From Phycisphaerales bacterium (lineage in GTDB: Bacteria; Planctomycetota; Phycisphaerae; Sedimentisphaerales; Anaerobacaceae), in assembly GCA_003141275.1 (NCBI GenBank), contig PLLM01000061.1, positions 7,131-71,130 of the forward strand: DNA of 64,000 nt, read 5' to 3'. A program made the position numbers and the translations under genes. Positions 36,219-57,624 of this stretch are shown here, piece by piece (the first letter of the stretch is position 1; the number at the start of each line of letters is the position of its first letter). Below the pieces are notes generated by a model that worked only from the letters and a program-made list of their open reading frames with translations, ran no database searches and had not been told where the DNA came from.

Positions 36219-36244
36219 CCCCGTAATCGGCAAAATATAAAAAT

Positions 36245-38506: not shown

Positions 38507-38513
38507 TACTATA

Positions 38514-39557: not shown

Positions 39558-39559
39558 TA

Positions 39560-39736
39560 TCAATGGTAACATCTTCAATGCTTGGAAAGCCGGTTATTTG
39601 CACAGATTGCACTGCCGTTAGGGATTATGTCACTGATGAGGTTAACGGCCTTCTTGTTAAAAATGGATTACGATGTAGTTATATTGATAAAGTTGTGACG
39701 GCACTTGTTACAAATAGTAAAGTATCGAGAGAATAG
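39560..39736 (+). pseudogene. C-terminal fragment of a GT1/GT4-type glycosyltransferase
   Basis: 'MLGKPVICTDCTAVRDYVTDEVNGLLVKNG' matches the conserved GT4 C-terminal block (G.PVI.T..GG..E.V.DG.NGLLV). The roughly 300 aa that should precede it are missing, and the frame overlaps the end of the GT2 gene. Confidence 0.55.
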
Positions 39737-39738
39737 TA

Positions 39739-41672: not shown

Positions 41673-41769
41673 CGGCGATTCGGAAACAGATGAGCCGTTA
41701 TCTGAAATATGATATGTGTTGTAGTTAAACATTCGGGTTTGTAAAGGCGGCATCACAAACATAATTTTT

Positions 41770-42723
41770 GTGGGGAATGAACAACCATTGTTTGATGTCA
41801 GTGCTGTAATTGTCAGTTGGAATGCCAGAGGGCATCTCGTTAATTGCCTGAATTCTCTTTTGGCTAACAAAAGGGGTAGATGTGAGATTATCGTAGTTGA
41901 CAATAATTCAACGGATGGCAGTCCTGAGATGGTGGAAAGCCAGTTTCCCCAGGTTAAACTAATAAGAAACAAGGAGAATTTAGGTTTTGCCAAGGCTAAT
42001 AATATTGGAATTCGGGTATGCACTGGTCGGTATATCTGTCTAATAAATTCCGATGTGATTGTGCTGGATGGCTGCATTGATAAATTGATGGAATTTATGG
42101 ATAAGAACCAGTTGGCCGGGATGGCGGGGCCGAGGATTCTCAATCCCGATCACACTTTACAGTTTAGCTGTTTTCATTTTCCCGGTATAAGAAATAATCT
42201 TTCTCAAGCACTTGGGCTGAACAAGCTGTTTCCGAAATCGTCTTTTTTTTCGGAACAAACAATGAAGTATTGGCCGCATGACTGCGAGCGAAAAGTTGAT
42301 GTGCTAAACGGCTGTTTTTGGATGGTGCGTCGCAAAGCAATGGACCAAGTCGGTCTTCTTGATGAAAATTTCTTTTTCTATGGTGAAGATATCGACTGGT
42401 GCAAAAGATTTAACGACGCCGGCTGGGAAGTTAAGTTCTATCCCGGAGCCGAGGCCATTCATTTTGGCGGGGCAAGCTCAGGTAATGCGCCCATAAGATT
42501 TTACATCGAGATGCAAAAGGCCGACTTGCAATATTGGAGAAAGCATCACGGCAGGTTAGGCCGATCGGCTTATTGGATGATAATTCTGCTGCGTCAGCTG
42601 GTACGGTTGCCTGTATATGTCCTGGTTTACATTTTTCTACACGGTGCGCGAAGCAACGCGGTTTTTAAGATGAAACGAAGTATTGCCTGCATTCGCTGGC
42701 TTTTTGGGACACGCAAGATATGA
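41770..42723 (+). CDS. Family 2 glycosyltransferase
   Basis: GTG start. 'VSAVIVSWNARGHLVNCLNSLL', 'IIVVDNNSTDGS', 'GFAKANNIGI', 'LNSDV' and 'GCFWMVRRKA...VG.LDENFFFYGEDIDWC.R' (rhamnosyltransferase-like GT2). Confidence 0.85.
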   Translation: MGNEQPLFDVSAVIVSWNARGHLVNCLNSLLANKRGRCEIIVVDNNSTDGSPEMVESQFPQVKLIRNKENLGFAKANNIGIRVCTGRYICLINSDVIVLDGCIDKLMEFMDKNQLAGMAGPRILNPDHTLQFSCFHFPGIRNNLSQALGLNKLFPKSSFFSEQTMKYWPHDCERKVDVLNGCFWMVRRKAMDQVGLLDENFFFYGEDIDWCKRFNDAGWEVKFYPGAEAIHFGGASSGNAPIRFYIEMQKADLQYWRKHHGRLGRSAYWMIILLRQLVRLPVYVLVYIFLHGARSNAVFKMKRSIACIRWLFGTRKI

Positions 42724-42748
42724 CGTTTGTTTTCTTTCGAGATATAGC

Positions 42749-43621
42749 ATGAAAACGCGATATGTTTTGGTAACTCCCGTACACAATGAGCAGCAGTTGC
42801 TTGATCAGGTAATTGCATCCGTTGTTTCCCAAACGATTTTACCCGGGAAGTGGTTTATTGTGGATGATGGCTCTACAGACGACTCACCTAATATTATAAA
42901 ACGGTACGAAAATAAATATGCCTTTATTTCTTACCTTCGGTTTGATGAACATTGCCAGGAAAGTTACTATAGTCGCAGGGTTTCTGTGGTTCTGCATGGG
43001 ATTGAGGCTGCCAAGAATCTGGAATACGATTTTCTGGGGGTATTGGATGGTGATATTACTTTAGAGAAGACATATTATGAAGCGATTCTGCAGGAATTTG
43101 AACGAAATACAAAGCTCGGAATTGCTTCTGGGATTTATGTAAATAAATGCGGCGACAGCCTCCAATCCGTTTTAATAGATGCTAACCATACTCCCGGGGG
43201 CATTCAGATGTTCAGACGGCAATGTTATGAAAAAATTGGAGGATATATACCACAGAGGTACGGAGGTGATGATTCGTGTGCTGAAATCATGGCTCGGATG
43301 CGCGGATGGCAGACACGGTCATTTTCAAAGTATCGGGTGATTCATCATCGGCCTACGGGAACAATAGGTGGTGCAAGCATAATTCGTGCAAGATTTCGCC
43401 AGGGATTGGCAGAATACGGCGTTGCAACTCATCCACTGTTCATGGTGGCCAAATCTATACGCCGCGCGGTTCTGGAAAAACCATATTTCATAGGCAGCAT
43501 CTCCAGACTTTTCGGATTCCTGTATGGTTATTGCCTGCGAGAAGAAAGAAAATTTCCCCCCGAGGCTATACGTTTTGTTCGAAAAGAACAGATGAGAAGA
43601 TTGTTTGGCCGGGCTATATGA
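42749..43621 (+). CDS. Family 2 glycosyltransferase
   Basis: ATG 42749 ('MKTRYVLVTPVHNEQQLLDQVIASVVSQT'), then 'WFIVDDGSTDDS' and 'LDGDITL'. Confidence 0.8.
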   Translation: MKTRYVLVTPVHNEQQLLDQVIASVVSQTILPGKWFIVDDGSTDDSPNIIKRYENKYAFISYLRFDEHCQESYYSRRVSVVLHGIEAAKNLEYDFLGVLDGDITLEKTYYEAILQEFERNTKLGIASGIYVNKCGDSLQSVLIDANHTPGGIQMFRRQCYEKIGGYIPQRYGGDDSCAEIMARMRGWQTRSFSKYRVIHHRPTGTIGGASIIRARFRQGLAEYGVATHPLFMVAKSIRRAVLEKPYFIGSISRLFGFLYGYCLREERKFPPEAIRFVRKEQMRRLFGRAI

Positions 43622-44085
43622 ACAAAAAAAATAATATTAAAATCTGTGTGGCATGTTCGACGGGTGGGCACATGGTACAGGCGAAACAGCTTGCGCCGGT
43701 TTATGAGAAGTATGACCATTTCTTTTTTACGTTCTCCGGCGGCGTTGCGGATGAGATGAAGAAGACCGAGCGTGTTCGTTCTATTCCTAATATAGTCAGG
43801 CGTAACCCCATATCCTGGATTGTTGGAGCGGTGCTGTCAGGATATGCAGTCCTTGTGGAAAGGCCTGATGTGGTTATTTCGACGGGCGCCGGAATAGTAG
43901 TGTACTTTTGCGTATTTGCGAAATTACTCGGGGCAAAACTGATATTCATTGAAAGTATGGCACGTGTCGAACGGCCCACTTTAACGGGTCGACTTCTATA
44001 TCCATTTTCAGATTTGTTCATAGTGCAATGGCCGGATTTGCTGAAGTATTTTCCCGGAGCAAAATACATGGGGAGATTGTTTTGA
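43618..44085 (+). CDS. Alg14-like membrane-anchoring subunit of a split glycosyltransferase (PssD/Cps14F type)
   Basis: ATG 43618 overlaps the GT2 stop. 'KICVACSTGGHMVQAKQL', 'RPDVVISTGAGIVVYFC..AKLLGAKLIFIESMARVERPTLTGRLLYPFSDLFIVQWPDL'. The long ORF-track N-terminal extension (43306-43617) is just the overlap with the preceding gene. Confidence 0.8.
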   Translation: MNKKNNIKICVACSTGGHMVQAKQLAPVYEKYDHFFFTFSGGVADEMKKTERVRSIPNIVRRNPISWIVGAVLSGYAVLVERPDVVISTGAGIVVYFCVFAKLLGAKLIFIESMARVERPTLTGRLLYPFSDLFIVQWPDLLKYFPGAKYMGRLF

Positions 44086-44576
44086 TATTTCTAACCGTAG
44101 GTACATGGAGAAGCGGCTACAACCGGCTTGTCAGAGCGATAGATGAACTAATAATCGCAGGAGTTATTACCGAGGAAGTTATCGCCCAGACCGGCTACGG
44201 TTCATATAAGCCGGGGAATATGATGATGATAGAGTTTTGTTCGCCGAGTGAATTCGGGAAGCTGGTCTCTGAAGCCAGGTTTGTAATATCCCATGCCGGT
44301 ATGGGGACAATAATAGAAACCGTCCGGCTGCACAAACCGCTTATTGTTGTCCCTCGCCAAAGTTCGCTGGGAGAAGTTGACAACGACCATCAGTTCACCA
44401 CTGCGAAACGGCTGGAAGCAGAGGGCAAAATACTCGTAGCTTATGAGGTATCTGAATTACCTGTCAAACTTGAGCAAGCAAGGACTTTTGTTCCTGTGAA
44501 TAGCCGAGCATCTGAAGATATCCTTCGGGCGGTCGAGGAAGTAATCGAGGCCGTGGCCGCAAAAAGGGGCAGTTAA
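44082..44576 (+). CDS. Alg13-like catalytic subunit of a split glycosyltransferase (PssE/Cps14G, Glyco_tran_28_C type)
   Basis: TTG 44082 overlaps the previous stop (TTGA). 'IFLTVGT', 'FVISHAGMGTIIETVRLHKPLIVVPR...GEVDNDHQ'. Confidence 0.8.
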   Translation: MIFLTVGTWRSGYNRLVRAIDELIIAGVITEEVIAQTGYGSYKPGNMMMIEFCSPSEFGKLVSEARFVISHAGMGTIIETVRLHKPLIVVPRQSSLGEVDNDHQFTTAKRLEAEGKILVAYEVSELPVKLEQARTFVPVNSRASEDILRAVEEVIEAVAAKRGS

Positions 44577-44602
44577 TAGAAAGAGCTTTTTCTGGGTAGA
44601 TA

Positions 44603-45181
44603 GTGAAATTTTGGCCTTACAGGATTCTGAAAAGGGATGACGATGGCATCAGGGCTGACTTGGACAGCATAATGCAGCATTTTGCCGCGAAAGGATTTAC
44701 TTTTGACACGATTGTCTTTGTTCCCAACGCTGGACTCTATTTGAGCAAGCTCTTCGTCGGAATGTTTGACAATTCATTTGAAGTAAATTTCGTCACAGTC
44801 AGAAGAGCTTCAACTGTGACAAAGGGTAATCCAGCCAAGAAATTTATCTTCAAAAGAGAATGGCTTTCCAATCTTATGAGGCATATGGAGGTGCTGATAA
44901 GACTCGTGAAGTTTAAGCTCGGAATAAAACAGAAAATGGAGGCAAAACTTGAAATAGGATTCAATGTTACAGATAAAAGAGTTCTGGTCATAGACGACTC
45001 GGTGGATACCGGAACAACGCTGCGTCTGGTGAAATCCGCTCTTTTAAAGAAAGGTGCTGGTTCCGTAGATACAGCGTGTATTTCAAACCACTTGCTGCCT
45101 GATAAGGTTTGCGTCGACTATGCTGTTTACACCTATGCGTTATTGAGAACCAGGAATTCCAGAGATTATGATGCGGTCTGA
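44603..45181 (+). CDS. Phosphoribosyltransferase-fold protein
   Basis: GTG start. PRPP-binding loop 'KRVLVIDDSVDTGTTLRLV'. 192 aa, no other domain. Confidence 0.7.
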   Translation: MKFWPYRILKRDDDGIRADLDSIMQHFAAKGFTFDTIVFVPNAGLYLSKLFVGMFDNSFEVNFVTVRRASTVTKGNPAKKFIFKREWLSNLMRHMEVLIRLVKFKLGIKQKMEAKLEIGFNVTDKRVLVIDDSVDTGTTLRLVKSALLKKGAGSVDTACISNHLLPDKVCVDYAVYTYALLRTRNSRDYDAV

Positions 45182-45755
45182 TAACCTCAATGTTTTTGAC
45201 TTTGACGGAACACTGGTCAAGGTCAACAGTTTCAAAAAAATAAACAAGCGGTTTTTGGTAACGCTGATAGCGAAGTTTAAGATAATATTTTTTATTAGGA
45301 TGGCCGCTTTATATGTTATACGCAAATGTGGCTTTATTTCTCATCTTGCGTTTAAACGGCAAGTTGTGAATATCTTTGAGCAGACTCTGACTGAACAGGA
45401 GAAGAAACATATCTGTCAGGCGGTTTTTGACGAGCATGTTAATCCGTCTGTTTTTCAGAGGATGATTGATATGGATAATTGCATTATATGCACAACGGCG
45501 CCATTTGCATATATGTCCAGGCTGTCTTTCGGAAAGGATGTTGTCATAATAAGCTCTTTAGATTCAGCAAACAGTTTTCCGGACAAAGGTAATTTTGGGC
45601 CCGCCAAAGTTGTAAATCTAAAGGCGTACTTTAAAGATAAAAATATTCAGGTGGCCAATTTTTTTACCGACAACAGGGTCGATGACTATGCTCTAATAGA
45701 TTTGTGCCAAAACGCCTTCATTGTGGAAGGCGATACTATAAAAAAGATAAAGTGA
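45168..45755 (+). CDS. HAD-superfamily hydrolase/phosphatase-like protein
   Basis: Overlaps the PRTase gene by 14 nt. N-terminal HAD motif I 'NVFDFDGTLVKVNSF' and late acidic motif 'FFTDNRVDDYALID'. Confidence 0.65.
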   Translation: MMRSDNLNVFDFDGTLVKVNSFKKINKRFLVTLIAKFKIIFFIRMAALYVIRKCGFISHLAFKRQVVNIFEQTLTEQEKKHICQAVFDEHVNPSVFQRMIDMDNCIICTTAPFAYMSRLSFGKDVVIISSLDSANSFPDKGNFGPAKVVNLKAYFKDKNIQVANFFTDNRVDDYALIDLCQNAFIVEGDTIKKIK

Positions 45756-45758
45756 TGT

Positions 45759-47711
45759 ATGTTGCGCATGGAAAGTATTAAAGCCATAATTCTTGCAGGA
45801 AAACACGATTTTGGGCGTTGCCCCATAGCATCTCGTTTACCTGCGGCTTTGTGGCCGGTGATGGGCAAACCCTCGCTGGAACGTATTATTGTTGGTCTGG
45901 CAGAGCAGGGGATAAGGGATATTACGGTCTGTTGCAGCGGAGACCGCGTTCTGTTGCAGGAATCAATTGATGTGCCGCAAATTAACGGGAATATCAGGTT
46001 TCTTGATGAGCCGTTGCCGATGGGCACAGCTGGGTCTATTCGCGATGCTGCCAACGGCGAAAAAAATGATTTGCTCGTCATATTTCCCGCTGATATGGTG
46101 TGCCCGCCTGATATCAGCTTGTTAATAGCCGCCCATCGTGATCAGGCAGCAGACTTGACTGTAGTGCTCAATCCAGCATCAAGCGGTAATGATGAAAAAG
46201 GCGATGTGGCCAATATTTATATCTGCAATCCGGATGTGCCGGAATATATTCCGGCGGAAGGATATCATGATATCAAAGAAAGTTTAATACCGGAACTGGT
46301 TAGAGTCGGCAAACATGTGGGTTATACCGTATTACCACATTGTGCCGGCAATTTCCGCGATGGGCAGGGATACTTGCGTGCGGTGGCAAATTATCTTGGA
46401 AAAGGACCGTCATTGAATGACGAGATACCTTCTCTTCGTCGTAATAATGAGCGGTGCTTATGGCTTGATGATGAGGCTGAGGTGGACCCATCTGCGAGAT
46501 TTTTTGGTCCCGTGGTTTTGATGGCTGGTGCCAGAGTAGCCAAAGGCGCAGTTATTTTCGGGCCGAGCATCATAGGTCGAAAATGTAGCATCGGTAGCGA
46601 CAGTGTTGTTATGAATAGCGTGCTTTGGGATACCGCCGGCATAGATGAAAATTGTGAAGTTCGGAATTGTCTGCTTGATTACGGTGTTAATATTGCCAGC
46701 GATACGGTTGTTAGTAACAGAATCATTCCTTTTAAAAAAAACTCAGTTATCGCGCGAGGAGGAATTAGGGCATTGAAATTCGGCAGGAAGACAGCAAGTG
46801 ATTTGTGTGCCAGATTTTACGGCGATTCAGCTTTGCCGGGGCCGTTAATCGCCCTAAAAACCGTAGGGCTCGCTGGGACCGTCATAGTCGCTGCGTTTAT
46901 ATGGTCCTATTGGTCGGGGATAGTAGACCTTTGGAGTGTCTGGCAGCGCAGTGACGAATACTCCAGCGGATTACTTGTCCCTTTCCTTGCGGGTTATATT
47001 TTATGGTCAAGGCGGGAACAGTTCAAATCCATTCCGATAAGACCATCATTGTGGGGTGGTCTTGCGCTATTATTTGCCGGCATATTAAGGTTATTCGGCT
47101 TGTTTTTTCTATATGGGTCTGCGGAACGATTCTCTATAGTTCTCAGTATCGCAGCGATTGTTCTGTTTATCTTGGGCTGGCAGTTTTTCAAAAAAGCAAC
47201 CACCGTATTGCTGTTTCTTTGCTTAATGTTACCCTGGCCACATAGTGTTCAGTCGGCTGTTGCACTACCTTTACAACAGTGGTCAACTTCATCAGCGGCA
47301 TTTTGCCTTGAAATAATGGGCTACGATGTTATTAAGGAAGGCAATGTCATACATATCGGCCAAACAAGTGTGGCCGTAGCCGAGGCCTGTAACGGTCTGC
47401 GTATGGTCACGGCATTTTTTGTAATCAGCGCCCTGGTTGTAATGCTGGTAAGACGGAAATGGTGGGAGAAACAGGTCGTCATGACATCCAGTTTGCCTAT
47501 CGCACTGCTATGCAATACAATACGGTTGACGGTTACGGCGATGGCTTTCACTGTCCTTAAGGGTGATTACTGGGAAAAAATGTTCCACGATTTTGGCGGT
47601 TACGCTATGATGCCGCTGGCCCTGGCGGCGGTAATAGGGGAATTTTGGCTGTTGGGCCTGCTTACAGTGAGGCCAGACGAAAAAAGCTCAATAATTATCA
47701 CCCGAGGATAA
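45759..47711 (+). CDS. Fusion protein: NDP-sugar pyrophosphorylase-like domain + left-handed beta-helix + exosortase (EpsH/Xrt family)
   Basis: The first ~230 aa have a nucleotidyltransferase-fold pattern ('KAIILAGKHDFGRCPIASRLPAALWPVMGKP', 'PMGTAGSIRDA', 'LLVIFPADMV'). The LbH segment is 'GARVAKGAVIFGPSIIGRKCSIGSDSVVMNSVLWDTAGIDENCEVRNCLL'. The C-terminal ~300 aa are polytopic with exosortase catalytic motifs 'VAEACNGLRM' (Cys), 'LLCNTIRLT' (Arg) and 'FHDFGGY' (His). Confidence 0.85.
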   Translation: MLRMESIKAIILAGKHDFGRCPIASRLPAALWPVMGKPSLERIIVGLAEQGIRDITVCCSGDRVLLQESIDVPQINGNIRFLDEPLPMGTAGSIRDAANGEKNDLLVIFPADMVCPPDISLLIAAHRDQAADLTVVLNPASSGNDEKGDVANIYICNPDVPEYIPAEGYHDIKESLIPELVRVGKHVGYTVLPHCAGNFRDGQGYLRAVANYLGKGPSLNDEIPSLRRNNERCLWLDDEAEVDPSARFFGPVVLMAGARVAKGAVIFGPSIIGRKCSIGSDSVVMNSVLWDTAGIDENCEVRNCLLDYGVNIASDTVVSNRIIPFKKNSVIARGGIRALKFGRKTASDLCARFYGDSALPGPLIALKTVGLAGTVIVAAFIWSYWSGIVDLWSVWQRSDEYSSGLLVPFLAGYILWSRREQFKSIPIRPSLWGGLALLFAGILRLFGLFFLYGSAERFSIVLSIAAIVLFILGWQFFKKATTVLLFLCLMLPWPHSVQSAVALPLQQWSTSSAAFCLEIMGYDVIKEGNVIHIGQTSVAVAEACNGLRMVTAFFVISALVVMLVRRKWWEKQVVMTSSLPIALLCNTIRLTVTAMAFTVLKGDYWEKMFHDFGGYAMMPLALAAVIGEFWLLGLLTVRPDEKSSIIITRG

Positions 47712-47757
47712 AGAACCGATATAGTAAATAGAAATGTTTTCAATATGAGAGTGCTGA

Positions 47758-50028
47758 ATGGATGAATTGACGCGATATGAAGCTGGAATGCTAGGACCTG
47801 TTATCCAGGGAATGCCACCTTTTCCGGAGCCGGCTGGGCCGAATGTATTCGATATGCTTGCCACAGTTCTGCTCCGCCGGTGGCGAGCAGCTGTGATTGT
47901 ATTTGCCGTAATATGTTGCACTGGTTTGTCTGTAATATGGCTGATTCTAAAGCCTGTCTGTGAGGTGACTGGCGCGATAAAGGTAGCTCCCATTCTGTCG
48001 AACATTCTGACTGGTGAGGCGGACAGAGGTGATATATCGAATTACCAGAGTTTTATGAACACGCAGGTCGAGATGATAATCAGCGGTCCGGTAATCGAGA
48101 GGGCTGCGGATGATTTGGCTACCAAGAATCTGCCTTTTTTCAATGCTAAAGCTTCGACCTTAATCAAAAAGCTGCAAAGCGAATTCCGCGGTTATTCGAC
48201 ACGTTCGGATTACGCGGCAAAGTTGAAAGAAGCCATAAATGATGGTTTTATTACCATAACGAACAGTCGGAATACAGAGTTAATTAAGATAACAATGGCA
48301 GATGATCGGCCGGAGGATGCGCGTCAAATAGTTGACGCCTTCATTCGCGCCTATATGGCGATGGAAGGTATCAAGTCCACGCAGGACGAGGACCAGAAAT
48401 TGAATGTGTTGGAAGCTGAAAGAAGAACATTGGCAGAGAAATTAGAAACCCAGCGAGAATCGATTCGGAAGTTGGCTGAGGAATACGGCACTGTTACTTT
48501 GGATGGTCGGCAAAATATGATGTTGCAGCGCGTCGCAAGTTTGCTGGCGGAATTGACAAAGGTCGAAGCACAACGGATTAGCCTTGAGGCCAGAATTCAG
48601 GTGCTTGAGCAGGGTAAAGGGCAAGGTGTGCCGGAAGAGCGGCTCAACAAACGTAACGAACGCATTAATGCCGACCCTGCAGTTCAGGAACTTGTTCGCA
48701 GTATTGTTCGGTTGGAGGAAGACCTCATCGCTGCAAGACAATTTATGACACCAGAAAATCCTCTGTTGAAACAAAAAGAGGAGTTTGTAGAATCTTTCGG
48801 GAAACGCCTCGAGGAAAAACGCCGGGAGGAAGCGAACGATATTGGCAAGAACGAGCTTCAAAATTCTCGTGCGCAACTTGAAGAAACTGCTGCCTATGAA
48901 AAACTGCTGCGAGAGAAACTCGCTGCCGAGGACGATCAGACAATACAAATCGGGCGAAAGCAATTGTCGATTCAGGATATGCAATATCAGCTTGGACTGG
49001 AAAAAGAAATGTACGATACGGTCACGAAGCGTGTCCAGGAGCTTGAAATGGAGCGCAAGCGGCCAGCGAGAGTAAGTGTCGCTTATAACGCCGATATTGC
49101 GAATATTCGTGACAAACGTATCAAGTACTCAGCAGCGGTTGTCTTCGCCGCGATTGCTGGCGGAATAGGGCTGGCCTTGCTGAAGGACAAGATGGATCCG
49201 AGTTTGCGGTCACCGGAAGATATTACTAGGCTTCTCGGTGTCAGAATAATTGGGACAACTACAAACCAGGAGACCGTTGAAAAAGCCCTGCTCCCGAGAC
49301 AGTTGACCGAGGATTACCAGACAATCCGTGCCAACCTCGGATTGCTCGACGGCGGCGGAATGCCGAAAAAACTGGTCGTTACCAGCGCCGGAATGCGCGA
49401 CGGCAAAACCACTTTCTCCGTTAATCTCGCCACCAGTTTGAGCAGGTCAGGTCGCAAGGTGCTGCTGATAGATGGTGATTTGAGGAAGCCGGACATCGGA
49501 CGTTTACTGAACGTCCCAAGAGATATGAGACGTCTGTTAGACGTGCTTATGGGCAGCCCTGCCGATGACTCCGCCATTGCAATTGTTTCGCCGGGTCTGC
49601 ACGTCCTTGCATCGGATTCACAAAATACGGTTGACCCTTATGAGTTATTGGTATTGCCAAGTACAGTGTCGCTTATAGATAATCTTTCGGAAAGATATGA
49701 CCATGTGATTATCGATACACCTCCTGTTCTGGCGTTTCCCGATGCGCTTATATTGGCCAAAATCGCCGGCGCAGTAATACTCGCGAGCTTTGCCGGGCGT
49801 ACTTCAGGCCCGGACCTTAAGGAAACAAAAGACAGATTGGCTCAGATTAACGTCAGGATACTTGGAACGGTTATGGGCAATGTCCACCTTGGTCATACTT
49901 ATTATCGTTATGGATACCACTATTACGCACAGGGCGGCAGACCAGGAAGAGACAGCAGGAGAAACGGCATAAATCCGATGTTGTTGTCTGATAAACCACA
50001 GGATGACTCGGACAAACCGACGTCCTGA
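47758..50028 (+). CDS. Polysaccharide co-polymerase / tyrosine autokinase (Wzc/GumC-EpsG type)
   Basis: Wzz-type N-terminal TM plus a long coiled-coil periplasmic region plus a second TM. CpsD/CapB-like ATPase with Walker A 'TSAGMRDGKTTFSVNLA', 'LLIDGDLRKP' and 'VIIDTPP'. C-terminal Tyr cluster 'HTYYRYGYHYY'. Confidence 0.9.
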   Translation: MDELTRYEAGMLGPVIQGMPPFPEPAGPNVFDMLATVLLRRWRAAVIVFAVICCTGLSVIWLILKPVCEVTGAIKVAPILSNILTGEADRGDISNYQSFMNTQVEMIISGPVIERAADDLATKNLPFFNAKASTLIKKLQSEFRGYSTRSDYAAKLKEAINDGFITITNSRNTELIKITMADDRPEDARQIVDAFIRAYMAMEGIKSTQDEDQKLNVLEAERRTLAEKLETQRESIRKLAEEYGTVTLDGRQNMMLQRVASLLAELTKVEAQRISLEARIQVLEQGKGQGVPEERLNKRNERINADPAVQELVRSIVRLEEDLIAARQFMTPENPLLKQKEEFVESFGKRLEEKRREEANDIGKNELQNSRAQLEETAAYEKLLREKLAAEDDQTIQIGRKQLSIQDMQYQLGLEKEMYDTVTKRVQELEMERKRPARVSVAYNADIANIRDKRIKYSAAVVFAAIAGGIGLALLKDKMDPSLRSPEDITRLLGVRIIGTTTNQETVEKALLPRQLTEDYQTIRANLGLLDGGGMPKKLVVTSAGMRDGKTTFSVNLATSLSRSGRKVLLIDGDLRKPDIGRLLNVPRDMRRLLDVLMGSPADDSAIAIVSPGLHVLASDSQNTVDPYELLVLPSTVSLIDNLSERYDHVIIDTPPVLAFPDALILAKIAGAVILASFAGRTSGPDLKETKDRLAQINVRILGTVMGNVHLGHTYYRYGYHYYAQGGRPGRDSRRNGINPMLLSDKPQDDSDKPTS

Positions 50029-50085
50029 GATACGAAGGTTTGTTGCCGGCAGAACAATCCCACAAAGTTCTTACACGGATAATGT

Positions 50086-51750
50086 ATGCATTTGGTAGTC
50101 GTTCACAACTCCAATAGTTCAGGTGAAAACAGTTCAGATTCCCTGCTGCTATTGGCGTTCTCAGGCGGGTTGGTGACGGACGCCGTTGTCGGCAGAATAT
50201 CCGAATACTATGGTTTGCACAGGGATAATCTGACCTTTGCGATACCTGAAGAATGGAAACGGGCCGGTGGTGTTTCGAACCAGGGTGTCCTGTTTTACGA
50301 TGGCAAAGTACCTTTACTCCAGCATCGCTATGCACCCAGCAGCAAATCGTGGTATGTAATTTCGGATGGCAGATTTTTTGCTCAAACCGACCTGCAATTG
50401 TTATATGAGACGATAGCTCGAATTAATTCCGATGTTGTGGTTGTCGATGTTGAGCCGTGTCTGAAGGCCGGCTGTGAAAAAGTCCTTACCGACTCGCATA
50501 AAAATCTTGTCGGTATTCGTCTGTTGTATGCAGACGTTGTTCAGCCGGCGCCGATTCCTTCTGACTGGCCGCATCACCTTTTTATTCGCTCCAGTATTAT
50601 CAGCCGGCTTTTCAAAGATGGGACTCTGCCCGCAACCTTCAGTGAGTTTCTGAATGGATGCCGTTCAATCTCTGCGAATATTACAGGTATTGGCATAGGA
50701 GGCCTGACGCTGGATTTAAATACTGAACAGGGATTGCTTTCAATGTTGCCCGGCGGGTTGGGAAGAAAGGCGAATTCACAGAGCAATTATCCGGCGAACG
50801 AGAAGTGGATTCATAACAACGATATAAGTATATCGGCTGATGCCCGGCTGTTTGGTAAAATTGCCTTTGGTCGAAATGTTACTATCGGCGCAAATGCGAT
50901 TATCGCAGGTCCGGCAGTGATTGCCGATGGCGCCAATATAGCCGACAAGGCGGTCATACGGAATTGTATCATCGGTCCAGGTGTTTCTGTGCCTGCCGGC
51001 TGCGTCCTTCAGAACCGTGTCATTGTGGCTTCATCCCGGATAGCAAGTCAATTCTGTGACGCCGTGAGCAAAAATGTTAGCCGCAATCTGCAAGATGGCA
51101 GTTCCTTCCTGAGTCGCTATAGGATGTGGCCGATATTTTCCTATGCCAGATGCATAAAAAGAATCGCGGATATTATTATAGCGACAAGTGTGCTTGTTGT
51201 TTTCGTTCCCATCCTGCCGTTCGTCGCCCTGGCGGTTAAGCTTGGCTCGCAGGGGCCGGTCTTTTTCAAAGATATGCGACAGGGGCTGCATGGCAAACCT
51301 TTTGCCTGTCTAAAGTTCAGGACAATGCTTGTCGGCGCCGATGCAATGCAGGAAAAATTAAGGGCGCTCAATGAAGCGGACGGGCCTCAGTTTGTGATTT
51401 CTGATGACCCCAGGATGAGCAGGGTCGGGCGGTTTTTGCGAGAAACATACATAGATGAAATTCCTCAGTTCTTGTCAATTTTACTTGGTCATATGAGCGT
51501 TGTTGGCCCAAGACCATCCCCGGAATCAGAGAACGTCCTTTGCCCGTTCTGGCGGGACGCTCGATTGTCGGTCAGGCCTGGTCTGACGGGACTTTGGCAG
51601 GTTTGCAGAACGCGTCAGCCGATGAAGGATTTCCAGGAATGGATACACTACGACATCGAATACGTCAGGAATCTTTCGATAGGGCTTGACCTGTGGATAT
51701 GCTGGCAGACGGCCAAAAAAATGTTCGTTAATTTCGTTCGTCAATTCTAA
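50086..51750 (+). CDS. Fusion protein: degenerate nucleotidyltransferase-like region + left-handed beta-helix + bacterial sugar transferase (priming polyprenyl-phosphate glycosyl-1-phosphate transferase)
   Basis: The C-terminal ~200 aa are 'RIADIIIATSVLVVFVPILPFVALAVKLGSQGPVFFKDMRQGLHGKPFACLKFRTM', 'DPRMSRVGRFLRETYIDEIPQFLSILLGHMSVVGPRP' and 'RPGLTGLWQV', the classic WbaP/EpsB family core. They are preceded by LbH repeats 'FGRNVTIGANAIIAGPAVIADGANIADKAVIRNCIIGPGVSVPAGCVLQNRVIV' and a ~230-aa N-terminal region of unclear function. Confidence 0.85.
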   Translation: MHLVVVHNSNSSGENSSDSLLLLAFSGGLVTDAVVGRISEYYGLHRDNLTFAIPEEWKRAGGVSNQGVLFYDGKVPLLQHRYAPSSKSWYVISDGRFFAQTDLQLLYETIARINSDVVVVDVEPCLKAGCEKVLTDSHKNLVGIRLLYADVVQPAPIPSDWPHHLFIRSSIISRLFKDGTLPATFSEFLNGCRSISANITGIGIGGLTLDLNTEQGLLSMLPGGLGRKANSQSNYPANEKWIHNNDISISADARLFGKIAFGRNVTIGANAIIAGPAVIADGANIADKAVIRNCIIGPGVSVPAGCVLQNRVIVASSRIASQFCDAVSKNVSRNLQDGSSFLSRYRMWPIFSYARCIKRIADIIIATSVLVVFVPILPFVALAVKLGSQGPVFFKDMRQGLHGKPFACLKFRTMLVGADAMQEKLRALNEADGPQFVISDDPRMSRVGRFLRETYIDEIPQFLSILLGHMSVVGPRPSPESENVLCPFWRDARLSVRPGLTGLWQVCRTRQPMKDFQEWIHYDIEYVRNLSIGLDLWICWQTAKKMFVNFVRQF

Positions 51751-51780: not shown

Positions 51781-54700
51781 ATGGGAAAAAGATACTTTAA
51801 CTGGAAATTGGCTGTTGTGCTTCTAATGGGGCTGGCGGTGCTTGCTGCCACTGCTTTCGGGCTGCGGCACTGGCAGCGGAGCAGGAGGGCCTCTCAGGGG
51901 CTTTTGCTTGGCAACAAGGCATACAGCGAAAGCAGATGGTATGAGTCGGCTAATCAGTTCGGACGGTATTTGGGCGTGTCACCGGACGATATTCCCATTT
52001 TGCTCAAGTATGCTGATTCACATCTAAAGATTAGGCCTTTGAAATCCGGTAATGTTCAACAGGCAATAGCAGCCTATCGAACCATCCTGCGGCTGGAACC
52101 GGGGTATATAGAAGCGGCTTTAAGATTGTCCGAGGTATATCTTGGTCTTAATCAGGCGGCGGAAGCTGAGCAGGTTGCAGCAAGGGCGCTTCAATCTGCT
52201 CAATCTGTTGAATTGCGGAGGAGGTTGGCATTTGCCCTGGCGGTGCAGCGGAAATTCACCGTTGCGGCAAATGAGCTTGAAAACATCATCAAAGATAATC
52301 CTAATGATGTTCAGTCATACGAGATTATAGGAAAGCTCGCTGAGCAGCGGCCCCAGGATTTCAACATACCTGCGCAGTTCTGGTTCGATGAGGCGGTTAA
52401 GAAAAATCCGTCTTCAGCACAGGCGTTCATTATTCGAGGCGCATATAACCTTCGCCGGGGAGAAAGGGCTCAGGCGGTGGCTGATTTTAACGATGCTGCC
52501 AAAAAAGATTTGAGTGACCCTAATATCAGGCTGCAACTTGCCAGCCAGCTCGTTATAGCGGGGGATTTAGAGCAGGCCCGCAGGCATCTCGATATTGTCG
52601 TTGGCCAAAATCCGTCCAGCCAGGACTTGTGGCGCATCTGGGTGCAGCTTGCTAAAAAGTCCGGCGATACATCATTGATGCTTGAAGTTGCTGATAATGG
52701 TCTAAAATCGCTTTCATTGCAGCCGTGGGATTTTATGCCACTGGCCGTAGAGATATATATACGGGGTGGCCGGCTCGATAAAGCGGCCGATTGTCTTTTA
52801 CGGTTGCACCAAAAAGATATTAATCCTCCTGCGACTGCATTCCTCGATGGGCTGCTGGCAGAAGCCAAAGGTCAAGGTTACGAAGCTGTCGGATACTGGC
52901 AAAAAGCAATGGACTTAGGTGCCGAGCCGGCCAATGTGCGAATTATGCTTGCACGCGAATTATCGAACCTTGGCGATACACTGTCGGCGATTAAACAGTT
53001 GCGTGCGCTGGTATCCGAACAGCCAAGTCATTTTAGGGCAAGGATCGAGTTGGCCAAATTGCTTGGCGATATCGGCAGATGGGGCGAGTCGTTGGAACAT
53101 GCCAAGACTGCTCTCCAGATTTCGCCGCAGGACGCCGATGCAATTTTTACTTACGCCCGTGCCGGGGTAAACTTGATGACTGGTAAAACCGCCGGTTACA
53201 ACTCAGTATCTGCCAAAGAGCTTGAGGAATATCTGCGCAAGCTTGACGATGTTACAGGTGGTCAGGTTGATGTGAAGCTTTTGGAAGTGCAGTTGGCGGT
53301 GAATATAGCTGATTTCAATCGAGCCGAGCTCTTGCTCGGTCAGCTCAAAAAGGAATATCCTTTGGATATTAGAGTTGTTTTTGCAAAGACGAAATTACTC
53401 GTCTCGCAGGGCAAGACCGGCGAAGCTATCGCCCTGTTGACCGAGGCGGTTGACAAGTCGCCGGATTCGGTCGTTTTAGTAAAAACTCTTGCTGGTCTGT
53501 TGTTGGCCCAGGACACGAAGCAGCAGTGCGAAGAGGTGGTTAGTCGGGCTATGGCTAACAGCCGGGAACCCTCCATAAAAAGGCAATTTGGTTTGTTATT
53601 GGCCAGCTTGTACGCGAACTGGAATGAAGAAACGAAGCGATGTGATTTGCTCGCGCAGCTTAGCGACAAGTTTCCCGATGATATCCCTGTATTGCGTACA
53701 ATGCTTACTTGTCAAACTGTTTTGAGGGATTTGACCAGAGCACAAAAATTTGTCGATAGAATCAAGAACATTGAAGGCGAAAAGGGCTGGCAATGGCGAT
53801 ACGAACAGGCAAGGGTCTGGTTTGCTCAAGAGGATTTCAATTCCACCTATCCTCAGCTCGTGTTACTGCTTAAGGAAAATCTTCTGGATAATCCAGACAA
53901 CCAGGTCAGCCGAATGTTGCTGGCAGCAGCCTATGAAAGGGCAGGGGATATGCGCCTGGCGGTTGCGACTTACGAGGAAGTACTGAACCATTCGCCTGAA
54001 GATGTCAGAGTTATGGTTATTACCGCCGGTGCTTTGTATAAGGCAAATGAATACGACCGTGCCGACCAGATACTCCGGAGGGCGGCTGAAAACAGAATTG
54101 AAAATCCCGAACTGAAACGGCTGCAACTTCGAAGTTTCATCAGGCGAGGAGAGATTGATTCAGCCGGTACGGTTCTTGAAGACCTTCTCACGGCTGATCC
54201 GAACAATCAGTCAATTGGTTTATCGCTTGTGTTTCTGCAAATGCGGCAGGGACGGCTTGATGAAGCAGAAAAGACACTTGACGCCTTGAACATTGGTGAT
54301 TCGAATTCATTATCAGCAGCTGCCGCTCGGGTGGAACTGAATATCCGTCAGGGCAAAACAGCTGATGCAATCAAGATATGCGATAACATGGTCGCAAAGC
54401 TAAATAACGCTTCGTCGCTCGTTTTGCGGGCGAGGACCTTTGCATTGCTCGGACAGAACGATAAGGCACAAACCGATTTAGAACAGGCCGTGTCCGCCGA
54501 ACCGAACAATGTCGAAGTGTGGCTGGCCAAAAGTGACTTCTATCGTTCTATAAATCATATCGATAAATCCATTGAGGATGTGCGACATGCTTTAATTATT
54601 AGCCCGACGGACCTCATGGCACAGAAACGTGCGATTCTGCTTTACCTGGTAAGCTCCAATTCGGCTATGCGTCGAGAAGGAATGTCGCTTCTTGAAAATG

Positions 54701-55956
54701 CCTTGAAGGCGAATCCGCAGGATATGGAATTGCGGCTGTATAAAGCTCGTCTGCTGATTTCGCAGGGTACGTTACCTTCCCTGGAAGGAGCTAAAAGTAT
54801 CCTTGAAACTGTAACTGAACAGCAGCCGTTAAGCAGCGAGGCATGGCAGCTTCTCGCTGAAGTCGCCACAAGACAGGGACAATCCGCCAGGGCGACGGAT
54901 ATCACTCTTAGAGGTCTTGCCTACCGCCCCAATGACAAGGGCTTATTGTTGCTGAGGGCAAAACTTTTGAAAGATCGGTCACCGATGCTTGCCGTTCCAA
55001 TTTTCCGCACCCTGCTGGAAATGGAACCAAATGATTCCGAGATGACGGCCTATCTTGCCGAGACGTATATCGACGCGGGAGAGTATGGACAGGCGATGAC
55101 TTTGCTCAAGTCGCGGCTGGGTATGCAAAATACACCTGCGGCCGAGCGACGGCTGAAGATTGCCCTTGCTACGGCGACGTACAAGCTCGGCAATACAGAT
55201 GATGCGGAAAAGACGCTGGATGCTCTGCAGCAATCGTTGCCTGATGACCCTTTGCCTTTACTCGCTAAGATCCGACTGCTTAAAAGCGATAAAATGTGGG
55301 ACCAAATAAACCAAGCGGTAATAAGCTGGTGCCAATCGCATCCTAACGATGTAAATGTACCTCTGGTTGTGGCTAATAACCTAGCCGGCAGCCAAGAATA
55401 TGAACTGAAAAAAATAGCGGAAGATTTGCTCGGGCGAATCTTGCGGCAAAATCCGGATTCTCGCGGGGCGATATACTCGCTTGCGACGCTGCTTCAGGCA
55501 ACGGGTCGTTCCGCCGAAGCCGCCAAGCTTTATCAGCGTTTCCTTTTGCTGGATCCCAATAACGTCACCGCTGTTAATAATCTCGCATGGATTCTTTGCG
55601 AGGACCAGAGCCAGTATCAACAAGCTCTGGAACTGGCTGAAAAAGGACTTGCAAAAGAGCCAAATTATGTTGACCTGCTCGATACTCGCGGTGTGGTCTA
55701 TTATCGGCTCGGCCGTTTTGAACGTGCAGTTGAAGACCTGTCTCGGTGTATTAATCTTTACCCCGAGCGTTCGCAATCGCTTGTAGCTTCATACTTTCAC
55801 CTGGCAAGAGCATTGGCGAAGCTTGGGCAAATCAGCCAGGCCGTTGACAATCTTAAAAAGGCCCTTGATTTGAATAATTCGGCAGGGGGGCTAACCGCCT
55901 CCGATTTGACTGAGGCTAGACAGCTTCTCCAAAAGCTGTCGGAAGGAGGCAGTTAA
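51781..55956 (+). CDS. 1391-aa membrane-anchored TPR-repeat protein (PrsT-like PEP-CTERM-system TPR protein, greatly extended)
   Basis: N-terminal anchor 'WKLAVVLLMGLAVLAATAFGL', then TPR-like helical repeats along the whole length ('AIAAYRTILRLEPGYIEAALRLSEVYL', 'ALELAEKGLAKEPNYVDLLDTRGVVYYRLGRFERAVEDLSRCINLYP'). Position and architecture match the TPR component described for PEP-CTERM/EpsH loci. Confidence 0.8.
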   Translation: MGKRYFNWKLAVVLLMGLAVLAATAFGLRHWQRSRRASQGLLLGNKAYSESRWYESANQFGRYLGVSPDDIPILLKYADSHLKIRPLKSGNVQQAIAAYRTILRLEPGYIEAALRLSEVYLGLNQAAEAEQVAARALQSAQSVELRRRLAFALAVQRKFTVAANELENIIKDNPNDVQSYEIIGKLAEQRPQDFNIPAQFWFDEAVKKNPSSAQAFIIRGAYNLRRGERAQAVADFNDAAKKDLSDPNIRLQLASQLVIAGDLEQARRHLDIVVGQNPSSQDLWRIWVQLAKKSGDTSLMLEVADNGLKSLSLQPWDFMPLAVEIYIRGGRLDKAADCLLRLHQKDINPPATAFLDGLLAEAKGQGYEAVGYWQKAMDLGAEPANVRIMLARELSNLGDTLSAIKQLRALVSEQPSHFRARIELAKLLGDIGRWGESLEHAKTALQISPQDADAIFTYARAGVNLMTGKTAGYNSVSAKELEEYLRKLDDVTGGQVDVKLLEVQLAVNIADFNRAELLLGQLKKEYPLDIRVVFAKTKLLVSQGKTGEAIALLTEAVDKSPDSVVLVKTLAGLLLAQDTKQQCEEVVSRAMANSREPSIKRQFGLLLASLYANWNEETKRCDLLAQLSDKFPDDIPVLRTMLTCQTVLRDLTRAQKFVDRIKNIEGEKGWQWRYEQARVWFAQEDFNSTYPQLVLLLKENLLDNPDNQVSRMLLAAAYERAGDMRLAVATYEEVLNHSPEDVRVMVITAGALYKANEYDRADQILRRAAENRIENPELKRLQLRSFIRRGEIDSAGTVLEDLLTADPNNQSIGLSLVFLQMRQGRLDEAEKTLDALNIGDSNSLSAAAARVELNIRQGKTADAIKICDNMVAKLNNASSLVLRARTFALLGQNDKAQTDLEQAVSAEPNNVEVWLAKSDFYRSINHIDKSIEDVRHALIISPTDLMAQKRAILLYLVSSNSAMRREGMSLLENALKANPQDMELRLYKARLLISQGTLPSLEGAKSILETVTEQQPLSSEAWQLLAEVATRQGQSARATDITLRGLAYRPNDKGLLLLRAKLLKDRSPMLAVPIFRTLLEMEPNDSEMTAYLAETYIDAGEYGQAMTLLKSRLGMQNTPAAERRLKIALATATYKLGNTDDAEKTLDALQQSLPDDPLPLLAKIRLLKSDKMWDQINQAVISWCQSHPNDVNVPLVVANNLAGSQEYELKKIAEDLLGRILRQNPDSRGAIYSLATLLQATGRSAEAAKLYQRFLLLDPNNVTAVNNLAWILCEDQSQYQQALELAEKGLAKEPNYVDLLDTRGVVYYRLGRFERAVEDLSRCINLYPERSQSLVASYFHLARALAKLGQISQAVDNLKKALDLNNSAGGLTASDLTEARQLLQKLSEGGS

Positions 55957-56985: not shown

Positions 56986-57624
56986 ATGAAAAAGTTGGTT
57001 TTAGTGGCCGTAATGGCTTTGATGGTATCACCGGTTTTGGCTTTTCCGACGTTGCCAGATGGAGCGGATGCCTATTGGGCCATCAACGATGCGACGGGCC
57101 AGGCTGATGCAAGAATTATTTTCGAGAATACTGGAACAGGTTACACTTTCGGGATATTTGATAAGAATAACATCGCAAACAAACTCGAGGTGTTTACTAG
57201 TTCAAGTGTTACAGGCGACGCAGCCGTGGTAACCATCCTTGGCGATGTTTCAGGTGGTATATCTTTACAGTCGGGAAACACGACTCATTTTGCGGGGTGG
57301 GAAACCGCAACTTTTGCCGGAAATGCTTTCGGATATTACCTGACTACACCACAAGACGTGACATTTTATAGCGACACACTTTTAAATCCTGGCGAGATTG
57401 ACCATATGACCGCCGGTATTGTGAATCCAGGGTCTGAGTATCAATTAACCTGGGACGCTGGCCTTGTAGGCGACGACTTTATAGGCATCACGGCTAATAC
57501 CTCTAACTCTTTTGTTGCCAATGTAGAATCCGTTCACCCGGTTGTTCCCGCTCCCGGTGCAGTTCTGCTGGGCAGTATTGGTGTCAGCCTTGTCGGCTGG
57601 TTAAGAAGAAAGAACACAATATAA
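56986..57624 (+). CDS. PEP-CTERM sorting-domain protein (family A paralogue, VPAPGA tail)
   Basis: Signal peptide 'MKKLVLVAVMALMVSPVLA'. The body is near-identical to 17678..18256. C-terminus 'VPAPGAVLLGSIGVSLVGWLRRKNTI'. Confidence 0.9.
   Translation: MKKLVLVAVMALMVSPVLAFPTLPDGADAYWAINDATGQADARIIFENTGTGYTFGIFDKNNIANKLEVFTSSSVTGDAAVVTILGDVSGGISLQSGNTTHFAGWETATFAGNAFGYYLTTPQDVTFYSDTLLNPGEIDHMTAGIVNPGSEYQLTWDAGLVGDDFIGITANTSNSFVANVESVHPVVPAPGAVLLGSIGVSLVGWLRRKNTI

Follow-up and report, generated by a model that had tools for sequence, protein, structure and literature searches.

Homologous pyrophosphorylase-like modules on an exosortase and a priming phosphoglycosyl transferase in a planctomycete exopolysaccharide locus

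A 64,000-nucleotide stretch of DNA from a Phycisphaerales bacterium (GTDB order Sedimentisphaerales, family Anaerobacaceae; assembly GCA_003141275.1, contig PLLM01000061.1, positions 7,131 to 71,130 of the forward strand), referred to here as the window, carries an exopolysaccharide (EPS) locus in which two membrane enzymes possess the same kind of N-terminal extension. One is an exosortase and the other is the priming phosphoglycosyl transferase (PGT). In both proteins the enzyme is preceded by a domain with a nucleotidyltransferase (NT) fold and a left-handed β-helix (LbH), which together are called the module. The two genes lie on the same strand with the gene of a Wzc-like tyrosine autokinase between them; coordinates throughout are those of the window (Table 1).

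Architecture and homology of the two fusion proteins

Domains were assigned with Pfam and NCBIfam at their curated cutoffs, and AlphaFold2 (AF2) models were searched with Foldseek against the Protein Data Bank (PDB). The exosortase protein comprises an NTP_transferase domain (34 bits, with a gathering threshold (GA) of 21.2), an LbH_EIF2B domain (E-value of 2.8e-13) and, at residues 378–632, an Exosortase_EpsH domain (202.6 bits, GA 25.7). The exosortase core also matches TIGR02602 (155.8 bits, cutoff 105.55) and the TIGR04178 signature (54.1, cutoff 23). The AF2 model has a predicted local distance difference test (pLDDT) score of 71, falling below 50 in the loop of residues 17–30. It shows strands and helices at residues 7–215, β-coils at 226–319 (pLDDT of about 90), a linker helix at 330–354 of low pLDDT, and successive long helices over 362–636, consistent with a polytopic membrane protein of about eight transmembrane helices. 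Cys544 (in EACNGLRM), Arg589 (in CNTIRLT) and His610 (in FHDFGG) are invariant across the 71 sequences of the exosortase family that were compared. No solved exosortase structure was found by sequence or fold search. Assignment to an already named exosortase subtype was rejected, as every named NCBIfam model (XrtA, XrtB, XrtC, XrtD, XrtN, XrtT, XrtV, XrtW, XrtX and CrtA-C) scores below its own cutoff; the best scores are those of XrtD (164.1, cutoff 400), XrtW (152.7, cutoff 425) and XrtA (149, cutoff 208), and the others are lower.

The PGT protein has Hexapep and LbH matches at residues 260–316 and a Bac_transf domain (192 bits), and Pfam assigns nothing to residues 1–235. The AF2 model of residues 1–320 is confident (pLDDT of about 80–93), with an α/β domain followed by a β-helix whose coils occupy residues 254–309 (pLDDT of about 88). 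A helix-break-helix around 'VPILP', comprising residues 353–373 and 377–387 and possibly the re-entrant membrane helix expected before the catalytic domain of a monotopic PGT, is predicted with a pLDDT of only about 50–67; the catalytic domain itself was modelled with a pLDDT of 30–50, and that part of the model was not used. The catalytic domain matches the structures of WbaP and PglC (E-values of 1.7e-44 to 8.2e-32). Residues D457-E458 and P475-R476-P477 are invariant across the 70 sequences compared for this family; the Asp-Glu dyad is catalytic in PglC and presumably has that role here. The protein falls outside the large PGTs: it scores 236 against a TIGR03025 cutoff of 295.55, over model positions 220–440 of 445 only, has no match to the PF13727 domain of unknown function (DUF) in Pfam or NCBIfam, and lacks a four-transmembrane-helix bundle. 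With catalytic residues invariant in some 70 homologues each, the exosortase and the PGT are presumably both functional enzymes.

Homology links the exosortase and PGT modules, each of which has a two-domain pyrophosphorylase fold. BLASTP aligns exosortase residues 144–323 with PGT residues 135–313 (E-value of 1e-8, 23% identity). Profile–profile alignment with hhalign (120 against 115 sequences) gives a probability of 98.9% and an E-value of 1e-17 over 196 columns, spanning exosortase residues 102–308 and PGT residues 86–315; ahead of the hexapeptide repeats the match continues for about 130 columns and so reaches the second half of the NT fold. The closest PDB match of both modules is entry 8x7s (Foldseek E-value of 1.8e-16 over 375 columns for the exosortase module, 2.3e-10 over 373 columns for the PGT module), which the exosortase profile also finds by hmmsearch (E-value of 7.1e-25). 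For both modules the two-domain NT and LbH fold is matched with a Foldseek probability of 1.00 over about 360–375 columns. Besides 8x7s, matches spanning both domains of the exosortase module are VTC1, GMPPA/B, eIF2B epsilon/gamma and GlgC, and sequence-profile matches to the PDB agree with these fold matches; the PGT model next matches ST0452, VTC1, GMPPA/B, GlgC, GlmU and eIF2B over about 350–370 columns. The matches include the hetero-pair structures 7d72 (GMPPA/GMPPB), 8yre (VTC1-KJC2) and 5b04/6caj (eIF2B epsilon/gamma). HMM-to-sequence matches between the two families are confined to the LbH (about 22–69 bits), so the deeper homology rests on the profile–profile and structural evidence. 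A likeness arising from the hexapeptide repeats alone was rejected, because the hhalign alignment enters the NT fold and the PGT model matches whole two-domain pyrophosphorylases. In 81 sources, the 10 kb flanking each side contained no third paralogue of the module.

Both modules look like non-catalytic pseudo-enzymes, judging from the sequence motifs of their families. Aligned to active enzymes, the exosortase family has the GGxGTRL loop replaced by a conserved 'G-S/K-R/H-D-F-G-R-C'. The Lys position of the PKP motif is Thr in 41, Ala in 12 and Val in 8 of the 71 sequences, and the Asp position of the GD motif is Ser in 31, Asn in 18, Gly in 12 and Ala in 5; the Asp found there in the window's own module is judged to be chance. 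The family has a conserved set of its own, D17 F18 G19 R20 C21, W32 and G89-T-A-G92..R95, and 'GKP' and 'PxGTAG..R' are kept. The PGT module has neither a recognisable NT motif nor a Gly-rich loop in its family consensus, and conserves 'AIPxxW', 'DWPHHLF' and 'GGTxLDLxTEEGLL'. Evolution is two to three times as fast in both modules as in the catalytic domains (mean distances of 0.73 and 1.05 against 0.31 and 0.30). The degradation of the canonical catalytic motifs favours a regulatory or scaffolding role over an enzymatic one. We infer that both modules are cytoplasmic from the lack of a signal peptide, an NT fold that begins at residue 7, the Lys/Arg-rich linker before the first membrane helix and the monotopic nature of the PGT.

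A preliminary description of the window had placed the exosortase core in the C-terminal part of a 650-residue protein, read the N-terminal part as pyrophosphorylase-like with a degenerate loop and hexapeptides, located the PGT two genes downstream and taken the two N-terminal modules to be of one kind. All of this is borne out, as are its uninterrupted reading frames and the peptides that it quoted. For the PGT extension its hexapeptide repeats stand, and its 'unclear fold' gives way to a degenerate NT fold.

Table 1 Features of the EPS locus and of its surroundings in the window (aa, amino acids)
Feature	Position	Strand	Evidence
Putative pseudo-pyrophosphorylase module and exosortase, 650 aa	45759..47711	+	Uninterrupted open reading frame (ORF); Pfam, NCBIfam; homologues
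NT-fold domain, residues 1–215, remodelled P-loop 'GKHDFGRC'	45759..46403	+	PF00483 at 8–139; AF2
Short LbH, exosortase protein residues 226–323	46434..46727	+	PF25084 LbH_EIF2B at 237–323; AF2
Lys/Arg-rich linker, residues 324–361, from LbH to first membrane helix	46728..46841	+	Sequence FKKNSVIARGGIRALKFGRKTASDLCARFYG; predicted long helix
Exosortase membrane core, residues 362–650, Cys544/Arg589/His610	46842..47711	+	PF09721; TIGR02602
Wzc-like chain-length determinant / tyrosine autokinase, 756 aa	47758..50028	+	TIGR01007; AAA_31/ParA matches
Putative degenerate pseudo-pyrophosphorylase module and monotopic PGT, 554 aa	50086..51750	+	Uninterrupted ORF; Pfam, NCBIfam; homologues
Degenerate NT-like α/β domain, PGT residues 1–220, catalytic motifs gone	50086..50745	+	hhalign; AF2; Foldseek
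LbH, PGT residues 245–320	50818..51045	+	Hexapep/LbH_EIF2B at 260–316; AF2
Putative membrane-associated helix-break-helix and PGT catalytic domain, residues 353–554	51142..51750	+	PF02397 at 358–547
Giant tetratricopeptide repeat (TPR) protein, 1391 aa, PrsT-like, fourth gene of conserved block	51781..55956	+	TIGR02917, 307.8 bits, just under 312.2
Candidate exosortase substrate, VPAPGA-type tail	56986..57624	+	Tail scan; weak sub-threshold PEP-CTERM family matches
Candidate exosortase substrate, VPAPGA-type tail	57659..58273	+	Tail scan; weak sub-threshold PEP-CTERM family matches
Two tandem tailed genes, 22022–22729 and 22807–23412	22022..23412	-	'VPAPGAILLG.IGVS.VGWLRRRRTL' tails; one weak PepA-like match
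Classical PEP-CTERM tail protein ('PTPEPATLF...RKKH')	17678..18256	+	TIGR02595, 18.9 bits (cutoff 16)
Stand-alone exosortase-associated protein, EpsI-like (DUF3485), head of EPS operon	29923..30741	+	PF11984, 54.1 bits (GA 26.1)
Wzx/Wzy-type EPS biosynthesis genes	30838..45755	+	Pfam and NCBIfam matches

Conservation of the fusions and free-standing forms of the module

Relatives of the exosortase protein numbered 891 in a search of 5.8 billion proteins, and 2006 relatives of the PGT protein were found. Among the best 120 of the former, almost all are 640–690 residues long with the same Pfam architecture, and those that are named are called 'exosortase' and come from metagenome-assembled genomes (MAGs) of Sedimentisphaerales or Planctomycetota; most of the best 120 of the latter are 540–620 residues long and combine LbH with Bac_transf. 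A scan of one genome per species yielded 376 genomes with a relative of the exosortase fusion, and in all of the best 80, which were kept, the fusion is matched over essentially its whole length. These 80 are MAGs or single-amplified genomes, with no cultured carrier among them, and by title all are Planctomycetota (Phycisphaerae or Sedimentisphaerales) except L076 (Lentimicrobiaceae) and L049 ('uncultured bacterium'). About half of them (L004, L008, L011 and others) are titled 'uncultured Pirellulales bacterium', from 'binchicken' co-assemblies; the Pirellulales and Lentimicrobiaceae titles are probably inconsistent taxonomic labels and not real phylogenetic spread. The window is 84–87% identical to 'SPRUCE' Sedimentisphaerales MAGs from a peat bog.

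The gene order is as constant as the architecture. Among the 64 loci with enough downstream DNA, 63 have the fused PGT 2.1–2.7 kb downstream of the exosortase gene, on the same strand and with Wzc between, and in almost all loci of sufficient length the giant TPR gene comes next after the PGT. The only locus without a full Wzc and a fused PGT downstream (L069:9983-13363) is in a 6.2-Mb Phycisphaerales MAG (CP070675.1); a gene of 451 codons with partial Wzc similarity follows the exosortase there, and the PGT may lie elsewhere in the genome. At L049:35-4153 (CAJVYN010000211.1) the exosortase and Wzc share one stop-free frame of 1384 codons, in which the exosortase end '...AIIITQ' runs through AKPVVSIINRNERSTK into 'MNGLEKY...' of Wzc; this frame is either a genuine triple fusion or the product of a lost or misread stop codon.

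This conservation bears on the trivial explanation that a frameshift, a missed stop codon or a misassembly joined separate genes, an artefact to which we attach practically no probability. A related contig (L082) on which module and exosortase are two ORFs in different frames, 8 nt apart, would speak for it. However, the exosortase fusion is uninterrupted and full length in each of the 80 best genomes, and both fusions are the usual form among the 120 clusters listed for each, which derive from NCBI, JGI, ENA and Logan assemblies; full-length fusions across genomes and protein clusters, together with the 63 syntenic loci, led us to reject it. The domain junctions, at which the preliminary description had wished a frameshift or stop to be looked for, contain neither.

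The module also occurs apart from the exosortase. An exhaustive phmmer search with the exosortase module against 1.84 billion cluster representatives gave 151 clusters at an E-value of at most 1e-30, comprising fusions, fragments and complete proteins of about 320–440 residues. In the split form, that of L082, two family-2 glycosyltransferase (GT2) genes and an Alg14-Alg13 pair are followed by a module of 361 residues that ends in the linker and, after the 8-nt gap, by an exosortase core that starts from the first membrane helix. In the free-standing form (L083, L084 and L085), Alg14-Alg13 is followed by a module of 346–356 residues, Wzc and the module-PGT, and an exosortase domain is absent both from that slot and from the rest of the fragment. 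A second free-standing family, more distant and with at least 560 members, is about 30% identical to the query module and is found in Phycisphaerae; it is automatically named 'NDP-sugar synthase' and has a degenerate loop of its own, 'LAGvHxWg...pRpLxP'. Its cassette in L087, L092, L093 and L094 consists of the module, a Wzc of 748–775 residues, an LbH-PGT of 582–639 residues and usually Poly_export, and no exosortase was found within 9 kb of it in these four loci. Loci with a free-standing module likewise have Wzc between the module gene and the module-PGT. In an adjacent form (L089/L090), an unfused exosortase gene lies directly upstream of a free-standing module of the distant family, which is followed by Wzc, and the contig ends before any PGT.

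One of the distant-family loci, L094, has after its cassette a canonical NTP_transferase of 255 residues (L094:15985-16752) and two epimerase/dehydratase genes, so that genuine NDP-sugar synthesis is encoded there apart from the pseudo-enzyme module.

In an approximate neighbour-joining tree rooted on the distant free-standing family, the 'DFGRC'-type split and free forms nest within the fused clade (bootstrap support of 83–100%), which suggests that they arose by secondary fission or loss from a fused ancestor. The conserved unit is a cassette of pseudo-pyrophosphorylase, bacterial tyrosine (BY) kinase and pseudo-pyrophosphorylase-PGT. Ancestrally, EPS loci of Phycisphaerae had the module pair, which is older than the exosortase fusion and separable from the exosortase; the latter is a lineage-specific addition, joined to the C-terminus of the first module in the Sedimentisphaerales-type lineage. 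Since the free-standing module occupies the same cassette where the exosortase is absent, the core relationship is that of the module with the Wzc/PGT initiation machinery.

Co-variation of the two modules was measured in 65 taxa by a simple distance method, a partial Mantel test on distance matrices in which both catalytic domains and Wzc were regressed out. The two modules correlate with a partial r of 0.42 (p ≤ 0.0005), against 0.51 and 0.45 for domains within one polypeptide, and the controls are flat (exosortase core with PGT core, 0.06; modules with Wzc, -0.07 and 0.02). This co-variation fits a direct relationship, functional or physical, between the modules but does not prove one, as regions that evolve fast may simply have more resolvable phylogenetic signal in common.

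Genomic surroundings and candidate substrates

A complete EPS operon of Wzx/Wzy type occupies the plus strand at 29.9–56 kb and ends with the four-gene block of exosortase fusion, Wzc, PGT fusion and TPR protein. Its leading EpsI-like protein scores 37.9 bits with TIGR02914, under the cutoff of 42.8. The biosynthesis genes between the two encode a flippase, a pyruvyl transferase, a hexapeptide acetyltransferase, a nitroreductase-like protein, two deacetylases, a Wzy-like protein, a methyltransferase, three GT2 enzymes, a FemAB-like GNAT protein, an Alg14/Alg13 pair and PRTase-like and HAD-like proteins. Wzc matches TIGR01007 (121 bits, cutoff 108) and has 'GMRDGKTT' and a C-terminal Tyr cluster, 'TYYRYGYHYY'. 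The system is XrtA-like in content and outside every curated subtype.

The window encodes five proteins with sorting-type tails, of which one passes TIGR02595. The other four share the pattern 'VPAPGA(I/V/M)LLG.IGVS.VGWL[RK]R..', similar tails occur in L002, L022 and L059, and the tail of the 57659..58273 product recurs near the right-hand end of L002, the closest related locus. These VPAPGA tails do not reach the thresholds of the curated PEP-CTERM models, and their proteins are candidate substrates by motif alone.

Several further features were observed. The PRTase-like and HAD-like genes (44603–45755), which share 14 nt and immediately precede the exosortase fusion, are found again in just two of the 80 related loci, L007 and L052, and form a variable insertion between Alg13 and the fusion. 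A program-called ORF (43306–44085, within the region 42683–44085) overlaps the GT2 gene at 42683–43621; the internal ATG at 43627 is the most likely start of the Alg14-like gene, whose 152-residue product matches PF08660. On the minus strand, divergent from the operon that starts at 29923, a gene at 25778–29632 encodes a protein of 1284 residues with LamG/ConA-like, PKD and Ig-like domains. Two convergent genes for large GLUG-motif proteins (58531–60471, plus strand; 60630–62288, minus strand) lie beyond the VPAPGA-tailed genes, and a tyrosine recombinase of the phage-integrase family at the right end of the window (62994–63998, minus strand) suggests a mobile-element boundary near the EPS locus. 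The G+C content is 0.37–0.39 at 12001–16000, against a window average of about 0.46, and the GC skew changes sign around 16–30 kb, where gene orientation turns to the plus strand.

Possible roles of the module pair and relation to known systems

The modules may serve for docking or sensing, without catalysis, as partners of one another that would thereby tether the exosortase to the EPS-initiation machinery, a reading to which we give roughly even chances. Catalytically dead paralogues of the NT and LbH fold recurrently pair with their relatives, as in eIF2B gamma/epsilon, GMPPA/GMPPB, VTC1/KONJAC (VTC1/KJC2) and GlgC/GlgD, and it is from this habit that pairing of the modules is proposed, together with the accessory DUF of WbaP, which is non-catalytic, dimerising and nucleotide-sensing. 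In such a mechanism the exosortase and PGT modules would bind each other and possibly also a nucleotide or NDP-sugar. The pair and the kinase domain of Wzc would make up a platform on the cytoplasmic side that controls entry into the committed first step of EPS synthesis, that of the PGT. In the Sedimentisphaerales-type lineage this platform would keep the exosortase beside the initiation complex, and the processing of PEP-CTERM-type proteins with 'VPAPGA...GWLRRRR' tails could thereby be tied in space or by regulation to polysaccharide assembly.

The preliminary description had proposed a shared domain that couples EPS initiation to protein sorting. Such coupling is plausible in the fused lineage, where the synteny of 63 of the 64 loci and the co-variation of the modules lend it indirect support; the module pair is not specific to exosortases, and cassettes without an exosortase confine the proposal to that lineage. 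A more elaborate version, in which a module heterodimer resembling eIF2B-gamma/epsilon and a Wzc ring form an EPS initiation checkpoint in Phycisphaerae that recruits the exosortase in Sedimentisphaerales, with VPAPGA proteins cleaved and possibly placed on the nascent lipid-linked glycan at the start of synthesis, is speculative and on balance improbable. Exosortases have been linked with EPS loci since 2006, and to our knowledge no mechanism relating sorting to polysaccharide synthesis has been established; if true, the checkpoint would for the first time connect exosortase action with EPS assembly at the molecular level.

Several points weigh against pairing and tethering. The contact between the two modules is one that we infer. 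The mirror-tree signal may arise because shallow phylogeny is followed more closely by two regions that evolve fast than by slow controls, and the alignment of Wzc, which served as the fast control, is noisy owing to its coiled coil. With the conserved G89-T-A-G92, R95, 'GKP' and D201-like positions the exosortase module could still bind a ligand or retain some catalysis. Coupling to sorting cannot be the general function of the module, given that its cassette occurs in some loci that have no exosortase. The LbH score between the two families is no higher than that of the PGT profile with the LbH of GlmU (42.8 bits), so that the modules need not be each other's closest relatives. Foldseek TM-scores are 0.33–0.56, modest because the queries were full-length multi-domain models with differences in domain orientation.

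Other roles would need no contact between the modules. Each might be an independent sensor that binds a nucleotide or NDP-sugar and acts allosterically on its own enzyme alone, in cis, the likeness of the two reflecting shared ancestry and a shared ligand. The precedents are the WbaP DUF, which binds uridine nucleotides, with UMP inhibiting the enzyme (PMC10942596), and GMPPA, a ligand-sensing dead paralogue (PDB entry 7d72, 'bound to GDP-Mannose'), and the nucleotide-contacting 'GTAG..R' and 'GKP' are kept in the exosortase module. However, the PGT module has no recognisable nucleotide-binding motif, cytoplasmic NDP-sugar sensing is of no obvious use to the exosortase, which works at the membrane's outer face, and the modules co-vary. 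The first module is moreover kept in the cassette as a free-standing protein with no enzyme attached, which points to action in trans and favours pairing over purely cis roles; we regard the cis sensors as rather doubtful. The same free-standing copy, strictly retained upstream of Wzc and the PGT, is left unexplained if the LbH modules merely di- or trimerise their own proteins and, in the PGT, replace the four-helix bundle and DUF without any cross-talk, and so is the specific co-variation between modules. Such homo-oligomerisation scaffolds are unlikely, even though the LbH is a classical oligomerisation element (GlmU, GlgC, GMPP), WbaP dimerises through its accessory DUF, and the PGT here lacks the N-terminal region of large PGTs, as the partial TIGR03025 match indicates.

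That the exosortase module is an active pyrophosphorylase was judged unlikely from the loss of motifs. A bifunctional protein in which it acts as an atypical NDP-sugar pyrophosphorylase feeding the adjacent PGT would have in its favour a PF00483 score above the gathering threshold, relatives automatically annotated as 'NDP-sugar synthase' or 'mannose-1-phosphate guanylyltransferase', and the fact that no other pyrophosphorylase gene was seen at 29.9–56 kb of the window. It is nonetheless highly improbable: the GGxGTRL loop is replaced and modelled at a pLDDT below 50 (residues 17–30), the PKP Lys is Thr or Ala in 53 of the 71 sequences, the GD Asp is not conserved, and L094 encodes a separate canonical NTP_transferase in its cluster.

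The occurrence of the module in fused, split, adjacent and free-standing forms makes it a 'Rosetta stone', as the presence on the exosortase of a paralogue of the module that accompanies the PGT names a concrete interaction partner that can be tested. The architecture defines an undescribed accessory arrangement of monotopic PGTs, with a pseudo-pyrophosphorylase in place of the four transmembrane helices and DUF, and a three-gene Phycisphaerae cassette now mis-annotated as 'NDP-sugar synthase' or 'mannose-1-phosphate guanylyltransferase'. It would also add a membrane-tethered case to the pseudo-enzymes that regulate the pathways of their active relatives.

Described exosortase fusions carry C-terminal EpsI and CAAX-protease-like domains (Haft 2006, PMC1569441), and PGTs are classed as small, large (four transmembrane helices and a nucleotide-binding DUF) or bifunctional, with added catalytic domains (PMC11626204); fusions with an NT and LbH pseudo-enzyme are absent from both schemes. 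A literature search returned no relevant paper on an exosortase fused to a nucleotidyltransferase, pyrophosphorylase or hexapeptide domain, and other surveys of monotopic PGTs and exosortases may list an NT/LbH-PGT fusion. With no named NCBIfam subtype matched and no paper describing it, the exosortase fusion is new to the literature searched, as the preliminary description had supposed; the sequences themselves are abundant in public databases and annotated only generically.

Like XrtA-type systems (PMC1569441), the window places an EpsH-family core, its Cys, Arg and His invariant, within an EPS locus of Wzx/Wzy type, accompanied by a chain-length/tyrosine-kinase gene, a PF02397 transferase, a PrsT-like TPR protein, an EpsI-like protein, deacetylases and a FemAB-like GNAT protein, with small proteins nearby that have Pro-x-Pro, a transmembrane segment and an Arg-rich tail. 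It differs in the 345-residue N-terminal NT and LbH module, in a score under the XrtA cutoff and in its sorting motif, 'VPAPGA' instead of 'PEP', with 'GWLRRRR' conserved. The PGT shares with WbaP, large PGTs and bifunctional PGTs (PMC10942596, PMC11626204) the PF02397 core, the Asp-Glu dyad and an N-terminal cytoplasmic accessory domain. The WbaP DUF is non-catalytic, dimerises the enzyme, senses uridine nucleotides, with inhibition by UMP, and occurs also on unrelated PglF dehydratases (PMC10942596). Unlike WbaP and the large PGTs, the window PGT has neither the four-helix bundle nor PF13727 and carries the putative NT and LbH pseudo-pyrophosphorylase in their place; unlike bifunctional PGTs, its added module lacks catalytic motifs and has a short LbH of the pyrophosphorylase type, with no acetyltransferase domain assigned.

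The pairs eIF2B gamma/epsilon, GMPPA-GMPPB, VTC1-KONJAC and GlgC/GlgD have the same two-domain fold and provide the best matches after 8x7s. As in the window, nucleotidyl-transfer motifs are degenerate, fold motifs are kept and two paralogues belong to one functional unit. Those proteins are soluble, whereas the paralogues of the window are on membrane enzymes (or one is free), their pairing is a proposal, and the cassette has no evident active pyrophosphorylase partner. The closest solved relative of both modules is tlr0611 (PDB entry 8x7s, labelled 'UTP--glucose-1-phosphate uridylyltransferase' and 'Crystal structure of tlr0611'), which differs from them in its intact 'AAGKGTRV' loop and 'PKP' and in being a free-standing soluble protein of 401 residues.

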